A DNA stretch of 64,000 nucleotides from Nemertoderma westbladi (taxonomy: Eukaryota; Animalia; Xenacoelomorpha). The DNA lies in the NCBI GenBank assembly GCA_032718475.1, contig JAUCBJ010006911.1, positions 21,845-85,844 on the forward strand. Direction: 5' to 3'. The translations under genes and the position numbers were made by a program. Shown in pieces: positions 8,068 through 61,466 of the stretch (position 1 is the stretch's first letter; every line of letters begins with the position of its first letter). The notes beneath the pieces are model-generated. The model did no database searches and was not told the DNA's origin. It saw only the letters and a list, made by a program, of their open reading frames with translations.

Positions 8068-8244
8068 GTTTCTCTCACATCTTTAATCATGGAGTTGTCA
8101 GACACCAAGGCGTCTTCAGTTTCTGCTAATTCCAACAATTCTGCAACAACATCTGCGGGTTCCAACTTGGCGTATCTTCGAGCTATTCGTATACTTCGAG
8201 CGTTTCGACCACTTCGAGCAATTTCCCGTTGGCAAGGAATGAAG
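8068..8244 (+). CDS. Nav2: Nav2-type channel exon: DIII S3, extended S3-S4 linker, S4 (VSLTSLIMEL...LRAIRILRAFRPLRAISRWQGMK)
   Basis: attttag acceptor, gtaacg donor, 177 nt, phase 0/0; S4 R-x-x repeat; RAISRWQGM is typical of Nav2 DIII. Upstream exons lie before the window. Confidence 0.93.
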
Positions 8245-8576: not shown

Positions 8577-8685
8577 ATTGTTGTTAACGCATTATTTTCC
8601 GCGATCCCACAAATTTGCAATGTACTGCTGGTGTGTTTGATATTCTGGCTGATATTCTCAATAATGGGAGTACAATTTTTTAAAG
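8577..8685 (+). CDS. Nav2: Nav2 exon: DIII S4-S5 linker and S5 ([37 protein letters not shown])
   Basis: ttgtag acceptor, gtaag donor, 109 nt, phase 0/1; [18 protein letters not shown] is a conserved Nav DIII S5 motif. Confidence 0.96.
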
Positions 8686-15773: not shown

Positions 15774-15857
15774 GACAATTTTTTCGATGCCTCGATAATA
15801 ATGGAAATATAATGGATGCCGATGTAATACCAAATAAGACTGCATGTATTGCTCGAG
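15774..15857 (+). CDS. Nav2: Nav2 exon: DIII S5-P extracellular turret (GQFFRCLDNNGNIMDADVIPNKTACIAR)
   Basis: ttttag acceptor, gtgagt donor, 84 nt, phase 1/1; F-x-x-C...PNK-x-x-C turret pattern; joins both neighbours in frame. Confidence 0.92.
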
Positions 15858-23964: not shown

Positions 23965-24092
23965 CTGATTTGCAATGGGTTAATACCCATATAAACTTTG
24001 ATAACGTCATTCACGGATACCTAGCCTTGTATCAGGTGGCCACTTTTGAAGGTTGGATGGAGGTCATGGCTAGTGCTGTAGACGTCAATGGG
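23965..24092 (+). CDS. Nav2: Nav2 exon: DIII pore loop ([43 protein letters not shown]); filter residue Glu
   Basis: ttatag acceptor, gttagt donor, 128 nt, phase 1/0; [17 protein letters not shown]; filter codon GAA at 24048-24050. Confidence 0.96.
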
Positions 24093-24455: not shown

Positions 24456-24593
24456 GTTGATAAACAACCTATTTACGAAAATCAACTTGGATGGTATGCT
24501 TTCTTTGTGTTCTACATCGTAGCAGGTTCTTTCTTCACTCTCAACCTCTTCATTGGAGTTATCATCGACAACTTTAATCAGCTTAAGAAGAAG
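24456..24593 (+). CDS. Nav2: Nav2 exon: DIII S6 ([10 protein letters not shown]...[23 protein letters not shown])
   Basis: ttgcag acceptor, gttagt donor, 138 nt, phase 0/0; near-invariant [18 protein letters not shown]. Confidence 0.97.
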
Positions 24594-36779: not shown

Positions 36780-36896
36780 TATGCAACTGATGCACCTCTT
36801 ATGGTGTTTCTTACTGATACGCAAAAAAAGTTTTACACCACAATGACACAATTTGGCTCGAAGAAAAAGCCCAAGAAGAATATAAATAGACCGCAG
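36780..36896 (+). CDS. Nav2: Nav2 DIII-DIV linker exon, alternative A (YATDAPLMVFLTDTQKKFYTTMTQFGSKKKPKKNINRPQ), gate motif VFL
   Basis: ctgtag acceptor, gttaga donor, 117 nt, phase 0/0, no stop; aligns to the IFMT/MFLT-x-x-Q-K-x-Y-Y...GSKKP...RP linker. Not in the ORF track. Confidence 0.88.
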
Positions 36897-37504
36897 GTTA
36901 GATAAAATTACCGGGGAAATTTATCGAAACTAATTATATAGTTTCTATAGCGGAATCATTCTCATTAAACATTATTGCTGTTTCATTATCATCATCTTAC
37001 TAATTATTAACCGTATTGAATTCTGACTTGGGAGATTTGGCCCACCAATCAAGGTAATTTCCGATAACGTATAATAGGATATATAAAGCATCATGTTTAT
37101 CTTATTTTAATCAAATTGGTTTTATATTTTATTGTGTTGCAGTAATTCGTTACAATTACTGATTGATTATTTAGTAGCTCTATTGAGGCTGTTGGTTGCC
37201 GATGTTTTTCCCTTATTGTAATAAGATAAGCCCAAGAAAACATAAGTAAATAAATAAATCAAAAGCATAAATAAATTAGGTTATAAAAAGGTTATATTAT
37301 GTAAAAGGGACACAAAACTAAAATTTTACTGGTAGTTATGTAGTGAATGCCGTGGACTGCCTGATGCTTTACCTGTATTTGTATTTGTATTTGTACTTTA
37401 TTTTATCATTATTTTACTTTATAGCTTTACATTTATATCTGCACTGATGGTTTCTTCCAGGATGTATAATTATTAGACATATTTTATGTGGGTGAGTGGG
37501 TGAG

Positions 37505-38810
37505 TGAGTTTATTGGAGGTCATATCGGAATGGTTAGAGAGCCCGACTTTCAACCTGCTCGCCACCTCGAACTCTTGTGTGGATGAGTGGGTTTATTGGA
37601 GGTCATATCGGAATGATTAGAGTGCCCGACTTCCAACCTGCTCGCCACCTCGAACTCTTGTGTGGATGAGTGGGTTTATTGGAGGTCATATCGGAATGGT
37701 TAGAGTGCCTAACTTCCAACCTGCTCGCCACCTCGAACTCTTGTGTGGATGAGTGGGTTTATTGGAGGTCATATCGGAATGGTTAGAGTGCCTGACTTCC
37801 AACCTGCTCGCCACCTCGAACTCTTGTGTGGATGAGTGGGTTTATTGGAGGTCATATCGGAATGGTTAGAGTGCCCGACTTCCAACCTGCTCGCCACCTC
37901 GAACTCTTGTGTGGATGAGTGGGTTTATTGGAGGTCATATCGGAATGGTTAGAGTGCCCGACTTCCAACCTGCTCGCCACCTCGAACTCTTGTGTGGATG
38001 AGTGGGTTTATTGGAGGTCATATCGGAATGGTTAGAGTGCCCGACTTCCAACCTGCTCGCCACCTCGAACTCTTGTGTGGATGAGTGGGTTTATTGGAGG
38101 TCATATCGGAATGGTTAGAGTGCCTGACTTCCAACCTGCTCGCCACCTCGAACTCTTGTGTGGATGAGTGGGTTTATTGGAGGTCATATCGGAATGGTTA
38201 GAGAGCCCGACTTTCAACCTGCTCGCCACCTCGAACTCTTGTGTGGATGAGTGGGTTTATTGGAGGTCATATCGGAATGATTAGAGTGCCCGACTTCCAA
38301 CCTGCTCGCCACCTCGAACTCTTGTGTGGATGAGTGGGTTTATTGGAGGTCATATCGGAATGGTTAGAGTGCCTAACTTCCAACCTGCTCGCCACCTCGA
38401 ACTCTTGTGTGGATGAGTGGGTTTATTGGAGGTCATATCGGAATGGTTAGAGTGCCTGACTTCCAACCTGCTCGCCACCTCGAACTCTTGTGTGGATGAG
38501 TGGGTTTATTGGAGGTCATATCGGAATGGTTAGAGTGCCCGACTTCCAACCTGCTCGCCACCTCGAACTCTTGTGTGGATGAGTGGGTTTATTGGAGGTC
38601 ATATCGGAATGGTTAGAGTGCCTAACTTCCAACCTGCTTGCCACCTCGAACTCTTGTGTGGATGAGTGGGTTTATTGGAGGTCATATCGGAATGGTTAGA
38701 GTGCCCGACTTCCAACCTGCTCGCCACCTCGAACTCTTGTGTGGATGAGTGGGTTTATTGGAGGTCATATCGGAATGGTTAGAGTGCCCGACTTCCAACC
38801 TGCTCGTAAC
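37505..38810 (+). repeat. 83-bp minisatellite, about 16 copies, lying between linker exons A and B
   Basis: Period measured from 37511 to 37594; the unit contains a tRNA 5'-half/A-box-like segment (ggtcatatcggaatggttagagtgcccgacttcca). Confidence 0.95.
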
Positions 38811-39006
38811 CTGCTGACAACCCTGCTACCCTTTCCCAACGAATATTGTAATAGTACTTAAAATGGAAAAGATTTTGTTGAATATGTTTGGATGTTTTAA
38901 GATTGCTTCAGATAAAGTTTATCTCCGATATGAATAAAAACAATTACAGAATATAAATAACGTTCGCAAACTATGGACTTTCAATAATAATCGATTAATA
39001 TTTCAG

Positions 39007-39132
39007 TCGGTAGATTTCGTCGACTACATGGGCATTATTCTCACAGATCGGCAGACTAATTACTATATCACACTGAAGCGGGTTGTAGATAGTGTAGCCC
39101 ACAGACCGTCACCTGGGTTGGCTAAACCCAAG
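39007..39132 (+). CDS. Nav2: Nav2 DIII-DIV linker exon, alternative B (SVDFVDYMGIILTDRQTNYYITLKRVVDSVAHRPSPGLAKPK), gate motif IIL
   Basis: tttcag acceptor, gtacta donor (weaker), 126 nt, phase 0/0, no stop; keeps LT-D-x-Q-x-x-YY-x-T-L-K-R and terminal PK; most diverged copy. Confidence 0.75.
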
Positions 39133-39535
39133 GTACTATACAAATACTACCAAACCGAAATTCCCATTTTCCACAATGTTTTTACTTACACTTTAATCCA
39201 CCCCAAACCCTTTATTAAACTGTTTTTTTAACCCGATTTTTTTGCTGTAAACCTGCTAAATAATGCTAAATAATGCTAAATAATGCTTTACTGAAGATTA
39301 AAGATATTAATTAAAATTTATCCGTTTTTGGTAAATCATTTAAAACAAAAATTTAAAATTGTTGTGACTTGGTGTGAATATTAAAACTGGCCGATCTGAT
39401 GCAACGATCCAACCAACGACACTGTGTAATTTAAATCATTCAGTGTGTTATCGTATATTAATTGACATTTATTTGTGTTTTGGGTTTTACTTACTATATT
39501 TTCTGCTACTTTTCCACGCTGCTTTACAATCACAG

Positions 39536-39649
39536 TACGATGGTGACGGAGCTATAGATGTTCTATTGACGGCAAACCAACGTAGTTACTATCAAACTAT
39601 TAGAAGACTTAGTGTTAAAAAACCTAGGAAACATATTCAAAGGCCAAAG
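39536..39649 (+). CDS. Nav2: Nav2 DIII-DIV linker exon, alternative C (YDGDGAIDVLLTANQRSYYQTIRRLSVKKPRKHIQRPK), gate motif VLL
   Basis: cacag acceptor after a pyrimidine-rich tract, gtaatc donor, 114 nt, phase 0/0; LT-x-x-Q-x-x-YY...KKP.K.I.RP. Confidence 0.92.
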
Positions 39650-41296
39650 GTAATCGGAAACTACTAATTATAGAAGCATGTTGTATAGAAGATGTTTGTT
39701 TATTGTGTACTGAATAGTTTACATTATACAGTATAATATACCAACAGTTCTCTGGTAGACATATATCTCATATAAGAGAATCCTTAGGGTCTGTAGGCCT
39801 ACAGGTATAGACTTTATGTTTAATAATAAATTATTTAATGAATGAAGTCGTTAGTTATTATTAATTGTTATTAATGTGAATCCTGAGTCAGAATCGATTC
39901 TGAAAGTAGATGCATTTAAGGATATATTCTACTGCATGCGGAAAATGAGTTACTTGTACTGTAGGTTAGCTTTAGGAATAGTTTTAAATAAGCGTTTATA
40001 TGCATTTAGAAAAGTTATCACAATGTAATATTTCAGATGAACCATTCAATCATGGTGACGTAGACCACTGACATGAACATTCAGTGTATTTTTGTTTCAT
40101 ATTATATCCATATTTCATATCATATATCGTCCATATTATATATTATTGCGCAAATTGATTTGAATGAAGTCAAATGAGTTTGTCATGAAGACAACAAGTT
40201 ACAAAGAAACTAAATGGGGCGTTTGTTATAAAATAGAATGAGTAAATCTCAATTAACTAATTCACATTAACTACAGTTGAACATAATACTAACTACTGTA
40301 CAAACAATACAAAATCTACTGTAGGAATACTGTAGAACTGTATACAATGAATATTGGTGTGATATTGTCAAAATAATAATTAAAAATTCATTACTACTGT
40401 AATACTAGGATTATTTATTTTGCATTATGCGGAATTCGCACTTATATTCTTCCAACGATATTCTGCCTTGAGGTTTCATTGGTTTTTGAGTTTTGTTCTC
40501 AACCTTTTTTGTAATCTTAAAATAAATTAAATAAATTAAAATATTACAAAAATGTTAAATTTCATATTATTTCGTTATTACTGGATACAGGGATTGGTGA
40601 GTTAAGAATTCATAATTCGTTGACGCTTTCATTTTTCTATTTTCTGTTTTTTGCTTCGCTTTCTTGTTTTTGTTATTATTTCCGTTTGGTTTTTATTTCC
40701 GTTTGGTTTTTATTGTACTGTTTATGGTGATTTGTTTCTTAAAAGTTTGTTTCTCCGTAGCTGATTAAGTCACGTACAAATATCAAACTTAATATACAGT
40801 CTTGGTACAAATAGTTGTGGACTGTATTGTAAAATATTATTATCGCCGTAATTCTATTTAATTTCAGTATTATACTGCTTTCACTTTGCATGGTAAACTT
40901 TTTTCAAGCATTAGACACGTTTTAGCAGAGGCATGGCTTTACTGCTTGCAAGAAAAACGAATGTACATAAATTATTTTGAACTTTTTATTTTTCAAGCAA
41001 ACCATGTCTGCATAATGTCCTATATTATTATAAAATTAGCTATTTTATAAGCAAATAATTACAATAAGTGGGGTACATCGAAACCTTGAAACATCTCTTG
41101 AACCTGCCTAACAGCTACAACCGCCTCACTACAATGCCTTCTATAAATTCCTCTATTATTATCTTTAATTTCTAGAATAACTATTAAATTAAATTTAAAA
41201 CAGTATTGACAATACATATGGAAAAATATCTTGCAAAATATAGTCTTTACTTCTGCAGATTTTCTCGACGTGTTTGGGAGTGATAGTTCGACGTCT

Positions 41297-42115: not shown

Positions 42116-42247
42116 AATAAATTACTGGCTGCATTTTTTGATATCAGTATGTCATCGAAATTCGAGATAGCAATAATTATTGTGATCCTGATGAATACAG
42201 TTACCTTGGCAGTGAACCACTACGGCATGGATAAATCCTTTGAAGAT
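42116..42247 (+). CDS. Nav2: Nav2 exon: end of linker and DIV S1 (NKLLAAFFDISMSSKFEIAIIIVILMNTVTLAVNHYGMDKSFED)
   Basis: cacag acceptor, gttagt donor, 132 nt, phase 0/0; FD...KFE...I..N...HY pattern. Not in the ORF track. Confidence 0.93.
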
Positions 42248-43789: not shown

Positions 43790-43928
43790 GTACTCAGAAT
43801 ATTTAACATTATATTCACTGTAATATATTGTCTCGAAGCGGCTCTGAAAATAATCGGATTACGTCATCAGTATTTCCTAATCCCTTGGAATGTCTTTGAC
43901 TTCGTAATTGTTATATTCTCTGTAGCCG
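43790..43928 (+). CDS. Nav2: Nav2 exon: DIV S2-S3 (VLRIFNIIFTVIYCLEAALKIIGLRHQYFLIPWNVFDFVIVIFSVA)
   Basis: ttccag acceptor, gttagt donor, 139 nt, phase 0/1; LE...K..GLR..YF..PWNVFDF. Confidence 0.95.
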
Positions 43929-55576: not shown

Positions 55577-56781
55577 ATATTGTATTGGAAAATCTGTCTA
55601 TAAATATTGGATTTAGTCCCTCTGCGTTGCGCGTTTTCCGGTTATTCCGTGTGGGACGGATACTGAGACTCATCAAATCGGCGAAAGGCATCCGCAAACT
55701 CTTATTCGCGTTGCTCATCTCTCTCCCGGCGCTGTTCAACATCTTCCTCCTATTGTTCCTAGTGCTGTTCATCTACGCCGTCATTGGCATGCAGGTGTTC
55801 GGAACGGTGAGAACAGAAGACAGCTCGGGGGGCGGCAACGAGGTACTAAACGACGTCGTCAACTTTAAAACATTTTTCAGTTCGTTAGTGATTTTATTTC
55901 GGTTGATGACAGCCGGGGGTTGGAACGACGTCCTCGAGCCATTAATGTCGACAGAACCCCCAGAATGTGATCCTAACATTCAACACACCGGGTTGCTATC
56001 AGGTGACTGCGGGAACCCTTATATCGCAGTGATCTACCTCGTGACATTCCTACTGGTGACCTACATGATAATCATTAATATGTACATCGCCGTTATTCTC
56101 GAGAACTTTAATTTAGCTCACCAGCAGGAGGAGATAGGCATAACTGAGGACGACATAGACATGTTCTATCTCGTGTGGCAGAGGTACGATCCCAAGGCCA
56201 CAGAGTATATTTATCATCACCAATTAACTAACTTTTGCCATGAATTAGACCCTCCTTTGAGATTACCAAGACCGAACAAAATTAAACTCGTCAATCTCGA
56301 AATCCCAATCACTACAGACGATCGTCTTCACTGCCTCGATGTTCTCAGAGCATTGATAAAACACACTCTCGGTGATATAGAGGACACAGACGAATTCACT
56401 CAACTCATCGAGCGCATGGATGATAAATTTAAAGAAGCCTTCCCAACCAGAAAGACTCTGAAGGTCACTTCATCTACGTTCAACCACCAACGACAAGAAT
56501 TCGCAGCTCAGGTTATTCAGCTGGCGTGGAAAAGGTTTAGGATGCGGAAGGGAATACGACGGGCCAGTGCCGTCTACCGCCACAAACGTAGCCTAGGGGA
56601 TGTGTTGCCAGGACAACAGGAGCGGATAGATGCGAGCATGGCGAAGCTCCGGAGTGGACTGGTGCTGCCCGCCCGGCAACGACGGACTAGCACATCTAGC
56701 GAGGCGAGTTTATCGGATAGCAGTATACGATACACGGGTCAGCCCAGCCCTGCCACTCCCAAAAAGGGGAAACCTAGCTAG
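55577..56781 (+). CDS. Nav2: Nav2 terminal coding exon: DIV S4-S6, pore loop TAGGW, EF-like C-terminal domain, IQ motif, stop
   Basis: tttcag acceptor, phase 1; LRVFRLFRVGRILRLIK, SLPALFNI, NMYIAVILENF, W..YDP.AT, LHCLDVL, AAQVIQLAWKRF; TAG at 56779-56781. Confidence 0.98.
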
Positions 56782-57952: not shown

Positions 57953-58940
57953 AGAATGTACAGAATGTATCTACAAAATGTATCTACAGAATGTATCTAC
58001 AGAATGTATCTGCAGAATGTATCTACAGAGTGTATCTACAGAATGTATCTACAGAATGTATCTACAGAATGTATCTACTGAATGTATCTACAGAATGTAT
58101 CTACAGAATGTATCTACAGAATGTATCTACAGAATGTATCTACTGAATGTATCTACAGAATGTATCTACAGAATGTATCTACAGAATGTATCCACAGAAT
58201 GTATCTACAGAATGTATCTACAGAATGTATCTACAGAATGTATCTACAGAATGTATCTACAGAATGTATCTACTGAATGTATCTACAGAATGTATCTACA
58301 GAATGTATCTACAGAATGTATCTACAGAATGTATCTACAGAATGTATCTACTGAATGTATCTACAGAATGTATCTACAGAATGTATCTACAGAATGTATC
58401 TACAGAATGTATCTACTGAATGTATCTACAGAATGTATCTACAGAATGTATCTACTGAATGTATCTACAGAATGTATCTACAGAATGTATCTACAGAATG
58501 TATCTACTGAATGTATCTACAGAATGTATCTACAGAATGTATCTACAGAATGTATCTACAGAATGTATCTACAGAATGTATCTACAGAATGTATCTACAG
58601 AATGTATCTACAGAATGTATCTACAGAATGTATCTACAGAATGTATCTACAGAATGTATCTACTGAATGTATCTACAGAATGTATCTACAGAATGTATCT
58701 ACAGAATGTATCCACAGAATGTATCTACAGAATGTATCTACAGAATGTATCTACAGAATGTATCTACAGAATGTATCTACAGAATGTATCTACAGAATGT
58801 ATCTACAGAATGTATCTACAGAATGTATCTACAGAATGTATCTACAGAATGTATCTACAGAATGTATCTACAGAATGTATCTACAGAATGTATCTACAGA
58901 ATGTATCTACAGAATGTATCTACAGAATGTATCTACAGAA
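57953..58940. repeat. 13-bp satellite (ctacagaatgtat), left arm
   Basis: Direct periodicity. Confidence 0.96.
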
Positions 58941-61466
58941 AGATTTAGAAAAAATTTGTGAAAAACATGTTCAGAAAAAAATAGTATCACCTCGAAAAAT
59001 GCCCGATAAACCTTGGATGACTGAATCTCTTGTATCCAGTACTATACAAAAAAATAAGTTATACCGGAAGTACTTAAAAAACCCAACAGAATCAAACCAC
59101 TCAATATTTAAAAAGTACCGTAATCAATTAACATCTTCACTACGCTCAGCAGAAAAACTATACTACCATAAACAATTTCAAGAGAACTCAAACAATATAA
59201 AAAAAACATGGTTGATTATAAACGCTGCTCTATCTAAATCTAAGAAATTAAACATTCCTAGTCAGTTAACAGTTCGATCAGAAAACGCAATAGAAACTAT
59301 CACAGATCCTTCCAGAATCGCAACTATTCTAAATAATCATTTTGCTACGATAGGACCACTACTTAATAACAAAATCCCTTCATCAAACCGCTCCCCACTG
59401 CGCCATATCCAACACTCTAACAGACATTCTAACTCATTTTCATTAGTAGAAACTTCACCTGTAGAAGTGCAATACTACCTTCTTCATCTCAATCCTAAAT
59501 CCGCTTCTAATGATACTCTTCCAACTAAACTTATAATGTTAGCAGCTCAACCTATTTCTATCCATCTCAATTACTTAATAAACCTCTCCATCTCGCTCGG
59601 CTTTTTTCCAGATTCACTTAAAATTGCGAAAATTATCCCATCTTTCAAATCTGAAGACCCATCCGATCCAAACAATTATAGACCCATATCCCTTTTGCCT
59701 GTACTTAGTAAAATAATAGAACAAATAATCAATTCACAGTTACTTTCATATCTCAATAAATTATCAATTCTCTCATCCTCCCAATATGGTTTCCGTCATA
59801 AAATCTCAACATCTCATGCATTACTTTCTGTAGTTGAAAAAATCCATCAGGCCTTAGACGATAAGAACTCAACATGCGCCATTTACATAGACCTAAAAAA
59901 AGCATTTGACACCATCAATCACGAGATTCTCCTCAAAAAACTTGAATGTTACGGTATTCGCGGCATCCCCTTACAATTAATAACTAGTTTTTTATCATCT
60001 AGACTCCAATTTGTTTCTATCTCTAATCATCATTCATCCCTTCTACCTCTAACCTGCGGTGTGCCGCAAGGCGGGGTTCTGTCACCATTACTATTTCTTC
60101 TATATATTAATGACCTACCTAAATGTACTAACCTACTAACTACTCTCTTTGCCGACGATACGACTCTCTTTCAGTCAGCAAACAATATAACGAACCTAAT
60201 TACTGATACTAATTTAGAATTGAACAAGCTGTCTGATTGGTTGATCGATAATCGCCTCTCTCTAAATCTTTCCAAAACTGAATATACTATTTATACGAAC
60301 TACCGGCATAATTTAGATAATCTACCTCCAATAAAAATAAATTCCAATAATGTAAAAAAATCCCAATGTACAAAATTCTTAGGCATCTATGTAGACAATA
60401 AACTCTCATGGAAACCTCACATAAAATATATTACTAAGAAAATTTCTAGAACTTCAGGCATTTTTTATAGGTTGCGCCATATTTTTCCTCTGAATATTCT
60501 ACGTCAGCTGTACTTTACTTTGATACACCCCTACCTATCTTATGGACTAATTCTGTGGGGGAGTACATACTCTACTATAATAAAACAGCTTTGTACTAAG
60601 GTAAATAAAATAATCAGATGTATAACATTTTCTCAATATCAAGCCTCTTCAAATCCCATTTACAAAACACTCCACATTCTACCTCTTAATCTACTATATA
60701 AACATCAACTAGCGCTCTTCATGTATGACATAAATAATTCTCAATCCGGAACTACTGATATAGGAATTTTTTTTAGAAAAACTGAATCAATACACAGGTA
60801 CCTCACTCGCTCTTCCTCTTGCGGCGATTATTACATACAAACTGCCCGCCTCACGTCTACCCAACAATCCGTAAGCTTCCAAGGCCCCCTGATCTGGAAT
60901 GTCATCCCACCCTATATCCGGGAAAAGAAATCCAAAACTTCATTTTCCCGAAATTACAAAAAAATACTGTTCTCTCAAATATAATAGGTCTCCACTAATT
61001 CCATATACTCAAAAATCCTTTACTATATCCTTCCCTCACTCTACCTTATTGTATTCAAATTTAAAAAAATAAATCCAAAATATTACACTTCATGTCTTTT
61101 TCGCTAGTCGAAAGACTAGTCGAAGATAGACTAGTCGAAATCCACAGGAAAAATTTTAAAATTTTAAATTCTAAAATACTGCTATCTAAAACATCAGTAA
61201 ATTTTACAACTCTGAAGTATTATCTTTTATAGAAACCAAACACGGCACCCCCCACCCTCCCCCCCCCCCCTTCCCCCTCAGTATCTATCAGCAACTGCAG
61301 TTGGGCTATACTAGCTTCGCTATTGCCCGGCCGCAGTAGCAGCACCAAGACCACACTTTAACATTTCCTTATTATATATTGCAACAATATTTTATTGTGT
61401 GCGATTTAATTTGATAGATACGAAAGAAATTAATATACTTAATACTTAATACTTACTTACTTACTT
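58941..61466 (+). mobile_element. 5'-truncated CR1/L2-group LINE with an intact RT ORF to 60984, inserted into the 13-bp satellite
   Basis: KPW, NYRPISLL, QYGFR, DLKKAFDT, GVPQG, LFADD, KFLG; no APE domain; 3' UTR ends in (tactt/ttac)n. Confidence 0.93.

Follow-up and report, generated by a model that had tools for sequence, protein, structure and literature searches.

The window, the whole stretch of 64,000 nt analysed here, contains on its plus strand the 3' half of a gene encoding a four-domain voltage-gated channel, whose closest homologues among the matches listed are Nav2 / DSC1-like proteins, with roughly 50-57% identity. Eleven exons were mapped, all of them on the plus strand and with an AG acceptor, and the ten internal ones with a GT donor; the membrane exons match Pfam Ion_trans. 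Domain III (DIII) is encoded by five exons: an S3-S4 exon (8068..8244), which is bounded by AG and GT, open, and recovered by both Pfam Ion_trans and tblastn; an exon containing the S4-S5 linker and S5, with part of the latch receptor (8577..8685); an extracellular-loop exon (15774..15857); a pore-loop exon (23965..24092); and an S6 exon of 138 nt and phase 0/0 (24456..24593), which is the constitutive upstream neighbour of the inactivation gate. This neighbour is followed by three gate exons, named A (36780..36896), B (39007..39132) and C (39536..39649). Domain IV (DIV) shows an S1 exon of 132 nt and phase 0/0 (42116..42247), the constitutive downstream neighbour, an S2-S3 exon (43790..43928), and a last exon (55577..56781) encoding S3-S6, EF-hand-like and IQ regions and the stop codon. 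The joined exons give open frames of 742 aa with A, 745 aa with B and 741 aa with C. A tblastn search with nine homologues found no duplicates of the neighbouring exons. The DIII S3-S4 loop contains a long stretch rich in Ser, Ala, Asn and Thr, and the DIII S4 shows unusual substitutions. Tandem repeats occupy about 30 kb of the window, with arrays of up to 7.9 kb within introns, and the intron between A and B contains a non-coding 83-bp minisatellite (37496..38806, no strand assigned). Several LINE-like fragments are also present, and a long open reading frame (58459-60981) resembles what we take to be a reverse transcriptase.

The DIII filter residue is Glu (24048-24050), as in Nav2 and as the sequence-only reading of this locus had recognised, whereas Nav1 has Lys at this position. 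Nav1 channels also show an IFM or MFM latch, and here the third latch residue is Leu in A, B and C. By alignment, the DIV filter residue is Gly (55915..55917), which is common to the window channel and the acoels (D-E-E-G) and is replaced by Ala in all 117 non-acoel rows; of this filter, which is DEEA in full in Nav2, the window covers the DIII and DIV positions. The same Gly is one of four otherwise conserved residues that the window channel and the acoels have in common. A quick IQ-TREE analysis, with the linker removed, placed the channel within Nav2, on a long branch, as sister to three acoel Nav2 with a support of 99; this tree contains 39 rows, the window channel and 38 of 120 matches chosen for spread, and its support values are SH-aLRT and not bootstrap. 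The animal that this DNA comes from is likely a relative of acoels. The DIII Glu, together with the D-E-E-G filter of acoels, suggests Ca2+ entry, and the current would likely be carried partly by Ca2+.

Exons A, B and C are AG..GT-bounded, open, phase-0/0 copies of an exon encoding the whole DIII-DIV inactivation gate. Exon A has 117 nt (39 aa) and the latch VFL (36804-36812), exon B has 126 nt (42 aa) and the latch IIL (39034-39042), and exon C has 114 nt (38 aa) and the latch VLL (39560-39568). In an alignment with 256 homologues the three triplets fall in the IFM columns, as had been proposed from the sequence, and exon A was also aligned to the IFM of solved Nav1 chains. The span first given for this array, 36804..39571, runs from the latch of A to the latch of C, so it cuts exons A and C. 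Exon B is three residues longer than A and four longer than C, lacks the basic stretch and has a net charge of +2, versus +6 in A and in C, and the earlier description of B as a longer copy with this stretch replaced therefore holds. The length from the latch to the last Pro is 29 residues in A and 31 in B, whereas C shares its 28 residues with 255 of 255 homologues; the additional residue of A is a Lys before the first Pro, an insertion present in none of these 255. The three copies agree in eight columns, among them those of Leu +1, Thr +2, Gln +5 and the two Pro, and the number of strongly conserved family columns matched is 12 of 13 in C, 11 of 13 in A and 7 of 13 in B. Exon C is nearest to the acoel exons (50-57% identity), and its VLL latch was found in one other animal locus, a metagenome sequence (L005 594-704) whose linker exon is otherwise canonical. 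The boundaries of the linker exon are the same in the 13 genomic loci of other animals; 17 loci were fetched, the other four being three spliced transcripts and one unrelated sequence. A six-frame scan of the window found no fourth gate copy; the next best stretch scored 36, over a background of 19.7 +/- 7.1.

Between the copies, identity at the third codon position is 0.26-0.29, the level of chance, versus 0.46-0.61 at the first and second positions. In simulations of neutral decay, no more than 13 of 20,000 runs without indels reached that divergence with the frame and both splice sites unbroken, and no more than one of 20,000 did so with indels. By this within-genome test, saturated third positions and decay simulations together, A, B and C have therefore all been maintained for a long time as coding exons. 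The exon flanks show no clear homology (one of six comparisons at p 0.03). The least probable of the alternatives weighed here is that C, or C and A, are the working exons and that B is a relic, or a rarely used copy that is drifting. Exon B matches the fewest conserved columns, is weaker in its splice signals than any other internal exon (U1 match 5/9, pyrimidines 10/20) and has no close relative among the 150 matches listed, all of which would fit a relic; however, neutral decay almost never keeps frame and splice sites, and B keeps all eight invariant columns, with which only a recent loss of use would be compatible. If C were the sole copy in use, the gene would be an unremarkable Nav2 of the acoel type that carries two spare exons of old origin. 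Regarding the order of duplication, and the idea that A and C are counterparts of the two acoel paralogues, ten placements were tested and none was rejected. Exon A had been described as retaining the central latch Phe and the Ser of G-S-K-K. The Ser is present in A, as detailed below, and the word "retains" goes further than the data, since acoels have neither this Phe nor this Ser and, with no order of duplication rejected, both residues of A may have been either retained or regained.

The three copies are homologous, show the same phase, have intact splice sites and are each under coding constraint by the within-genome comparison, as is characteristic of tandem arrays of alternative exons. 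One copy per protein is expected from the constant latch-to-Pro length of the homologues and from a linker of 53-57 aa across this superfamily (PMC6259924), and the sequence makes one gate exon per transcript the most likely arrangement. The copies might instead be non-exclusive, with two or three joined in one mRNA, or all of them skipped, giving long or gate-less linkers, which we consider very unlikely. Every combination tested is in frame: the exon lengths are all multiples of 3, and an open frame also results from tandem inclusion, with 822 aa, and from skipping, with 703 aa. The introns between the gate exons, of 2110 and 403 nt, impose no steric block, and among the routes to exclusion considered none was found by frame or steric hindrance, and each candidate RNA pairing failed at least one of the two null models. 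Against non-exclusive use, the linker length does not vary among the homologues, and each copy has both of its ends preserved, the start and the terminal Pro, as would be needed if each one alone bridges S6 to S1. Two candidate pairings did not prove robust. A duplex of 37193-37223 with 41057-41086 (-28 kcal/mol), by which B and C would be looped out, scored better than 15 of 15 shuffles in one test, but the other null model equalled this pair of introns in 64 of 200 cases. A helix between the B-C intron and the C-S1 intron was matched by 3 of 200 in one of 11 tests and by 4 of 15 in the other null model, and was not accepted.

Among annotated isoforms of homologues, ten clusters (66 sequences, four of them without the region) contain no alternative linkers; the variation in these clusters consists of short inserts after the exon and of a changed DIII S6 end. 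In the 13 animal loci no second linker copy was found on the coding strand, in flanks of 259-8006 nt, many of which are short and make this a weak search. A protein with two linkers (P0397, residues 184 and 704) was discarded: it is a gene model of a scorpion para channel in which the repeated parts lie far from each other, and not an exon array. A weak linker-like stretch on the minus strand of another locus (L001 716-772, 10.6 bits), 0.7 kb before the real exon, is probably a chance match. In the window, a candidate 21-nt phase-0 micro-exon (41259-41279) lies between C and the DIV S1 exon and is the sole candidate that passed the filter; it is placed where isoforms of Symsagittifera and bivalves show inserts of 5-7 aa, to which it has no sequence likeness.

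According to the sequence-only reading, A would inactivate fast and be tuned by kinases, and B and C would inactivate weakly or slowly and allow a more persistent Ca2+ entry, a combination that we regard as rather doubtful. Its premise on the latch Phe is well founded. Of 275 proteins, 256 had the linker region and one of these lacked the exon; the other 255 rows show Phe (243) or Met (12), and all the Met rows belong to three acoel genes. In a profile search, 146 of 148 linker domains, obtained from 147 of the 150 matches listed (three did not align), show Phe, and both exceptions are acoel exons. In the honeybee CaV4, a Nav2 channel with the latch MFL, the change of MFL to AAA abolishes inactivation (PMC10983803). 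In favour of A over C, F1486L in human Nav1.5 is cited as increasing late current (bioRxiv 2021.02.06.430010), and a recent model gives the latch Phe an aromatic contact to a Phe of DIII S6, which no latch residue but Phe could make, while docking itself relies on bonds of the backbone with Gln, Asn and Pro (PMC12658180). The window keeps all these partners: Gln +5, the DIV Asn and Pro, and the DIII S6 Phe.

The separation of A from both B and C is less consistent with the Nav1.2 series. The sustained current in rat Nav1.2 is 2 +/- 1% in the wild type and 3 +/- 1% in F1489L, a difference that is not significant, versus 7% in F1489M and 18% in F1489I (PMC2217064, Table I). These data set B, with its Ile, apart from C, with its Leu. 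Thus, of the claim that B and C inactivate weakly or slowly, the part on B is supported, because of F1489I and of the low number of conserved columns in this copy, and the part on C is not, because of F1489L, of its position as the most canonical of the copies and of the Met latch of acoels. Exon B is predicted to be a fair candidate for persistent current and C to be near normal and close to A; a small penalty for C is plausible, and a large one is not predicted. The claim that A inactivates fast is not supported either: the wild-type honeybee CaV4 inactivates in 100-1000 ms despite its Phe, versus 2-10 ms in Nav1 (PMC10983803), so A need not be fast and would be so only in a relative sense. 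The one-residue insertion of A, without parallel among the homologues, also counts against the sequence-only reading. Slow inactivation together with a preference for Ca2+ is reported for NvNav2.1 (PMC3809514), and a review attributes the slow gating of Nav2 to the missing Nav1 motif context (PMC6259924).

The altered tail of B points in the same direction as its latch. In Nav1.5, a deleted or acidified basic, Pro-rich stretch gives more sustained current, which amounts to less than 1% of peak in the values covered (PMC2217430), and Pro residues of the hinge affect kinetics (PMC2217067). The changed tail would therefore strengthen the case for a leaky B modestly.

The second premise concerns phosphorylation. 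A Ser located 17 residues after the latch centre is present in exon A (36858-36860) and in 13 of 13 Nav1 rows, and is replaced by Asp in B, Val in C and Ala in acoels; the statement that A alone has a Ser at the Nav1 PKC position is thus borne out. This Ser is rare in Nav2 (28 of 242 rows, from amphioxus and bivalves, which are 3 of 63 distinct sequences). In A it lies in a basic context, as S1506 does, and is a putative PKC site. The other copies show a Ser one residue away from this position, at +18 in B and at +16 in C (39611-39613), the latter preceded by two Arg and followed by Lys at +2 from the Ser itself. By the consensus motifs as we assume them, Ser +16 of C fits both PKA and PKC, and C has in all one PKA-type and two PKC-type sites. 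Exon B presumably contains two PKC-type sites, both at Thr, as well as a Ser-Pro site, the context of its Ser +18 being poor. The sequences suggest that the copies differ in their predicted kinase sites and that A is not the sole bearer of them, which is contrary to the claim that only A would be kinase-modulated. Furthermore, PKC acting at S1506 of Nav1 slows the inactivation of brain channels (PMC2229346), which does not agree with a fast, kinase-tuned A.

All the isoforms share an unusual receptor. At the conserved-Gly position that corresponds to G1661 of hNav1.5, the last exon encodes Phe (55744..55746), and none of 398 aligned rows, those of 557 proteins that passed the filter, has an aromatic residue there: 372 show Gly, 15 Cys, nine Ala, and one each Val and Met. 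In hNav1.5 an Ile/Gly pair that includes this position directly apposes the latch Phe, and five receptor changes including this pair give persistent current in an electric-fish chimera of hNav1.5 (PMC5870949). A second oddity on the receptor side is a Gln at 8610-8612, which is codon 12 of its exon and belongs to the DIII S4-S5/S5 turn; in 277 homologue rows this residue is Ser, Ala, Gly or Pro. The ranking of A, B and C given above is borrowed from the F1489 series of a mammalian Nav1; since the pocket with Phe is shared by all the isoforms, the Nav1.2 order may not hold, and the ranking may not transfer to this channel. In an unlikely but coherent extension of this argument, latch and pocket would have co-evolved as key and lock: the pocket Phe would fill the space of the latch ring, and either Leu and Ile would fit best and A would be loose, or all three would leak. 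The rarity of a residue other than Gly at this position and the effect of the five changes that include the apposed pair are in favour of it, as are the acoel Nav2, in which the Met latch goes together with separate substitutions in DIV S4-S5 (Leu to Phe and Leu to Ile), a possible compensation for the Met. Nevertheless, the effect in the fish required five substitutions (PMC5870949), the pocket Phe is known from one genomic sequence, and its side chain may be turned towards lipid or a different helix.

The reading that we prefer, with about an even chance of being right as a whole, is that the three gate exons are likely alternatively spliced, with one gate per pore, B being predicted to give the least stable inactivation and C to behave approximately as A. 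Each transcript of this Nav2-type gene would take one of the three gate exons onto the same pore, all the isoforms would likely be slow-inactivating by Nav1 standards, kinase sites would differ from gate to gate, each having some, and the choice of splicing would set how long the current, likely carried in part by Ca2+, lasts. A stronger version of the preferred reading is possible, though we hold it only tentatively: in this relative of acoels the gate, normally invariant, would have become a three-way splice switch with a pocket rebuilt to accept Phe, Leu or Ile, and the one gene would yield Ca2+-permeable channels of a transient, an intermediate and a sustained type, each under kinase control of its own.

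The known channels share some of these features. Nav2, DSC1, BSC1 and the honeybee CaV4 are similar to the window channel in the DIII Glu, the boundaries of the linker exon, the xFL-type latch of A and the tree position (PMC10983803, PMC3809514); unlike it, the relatives examined have a single Phe linker exon of fixed length, whereas the window channel has three linker copies, the DIV Gly and the receptor Phe. The acoel Nav2 (Symsagittifera XP_063716752.1 and XP_063710219.1, and Convolutriloba XP_075240737.1) also show the DIV Gly and a non-Phe latch, but this latch is Met, the receptor Gly is kept, and among the annotated isoforms there is one linker sequence per gene, with optional inserts of 5-7 aa after the linker in one gene. 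Tandem, same-phase alternative exons are likewise found in Nav1, in the exclusive pairs 5N/5A and 18N/18A of DI and DIII S3-S4 (PMC13011093), and tandem duplicated exons in Liposcelis, exons 27A-D (PMC3805903); 5N/5A, 18N/18A and 27A-D encode S3-S4 voltage-sensor segments and not the inactivation gate. In the apteronotid Nav1.4b1 (scn4ab1), natural changes of the latch and of DIV S4-S5, one of them at the same Gly position, tune persistent current, but this channel is the product of a whole-gene duplication, still has the central Phe, is Na+-selective and has been recorded (PMC5870949).

Few parts of sodium channels are as constrained as the DIII-DIV gate, and the exclusive Nav exons listed above are located in voltage sensors. 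What is new here is the triplicated gate exon and the remodelled pocket, tandem exclusive exons in Nav as such being already known; the literature covered, which excludes most subscription journals, yielded no description of a Nav gate exon that is duplicated or exclusive, nor any of acoel Nav2 gating. Three natural gates on one backbone would be a ready test of how far inactivation in Nav2, the Ca2+-preferring relatives of Nav1, depends on the residue at the latch, on the basic stretch and on the pocket, and the change from Gly to Phe in the pocket makes the lock-and-key model testable with natural sequences.
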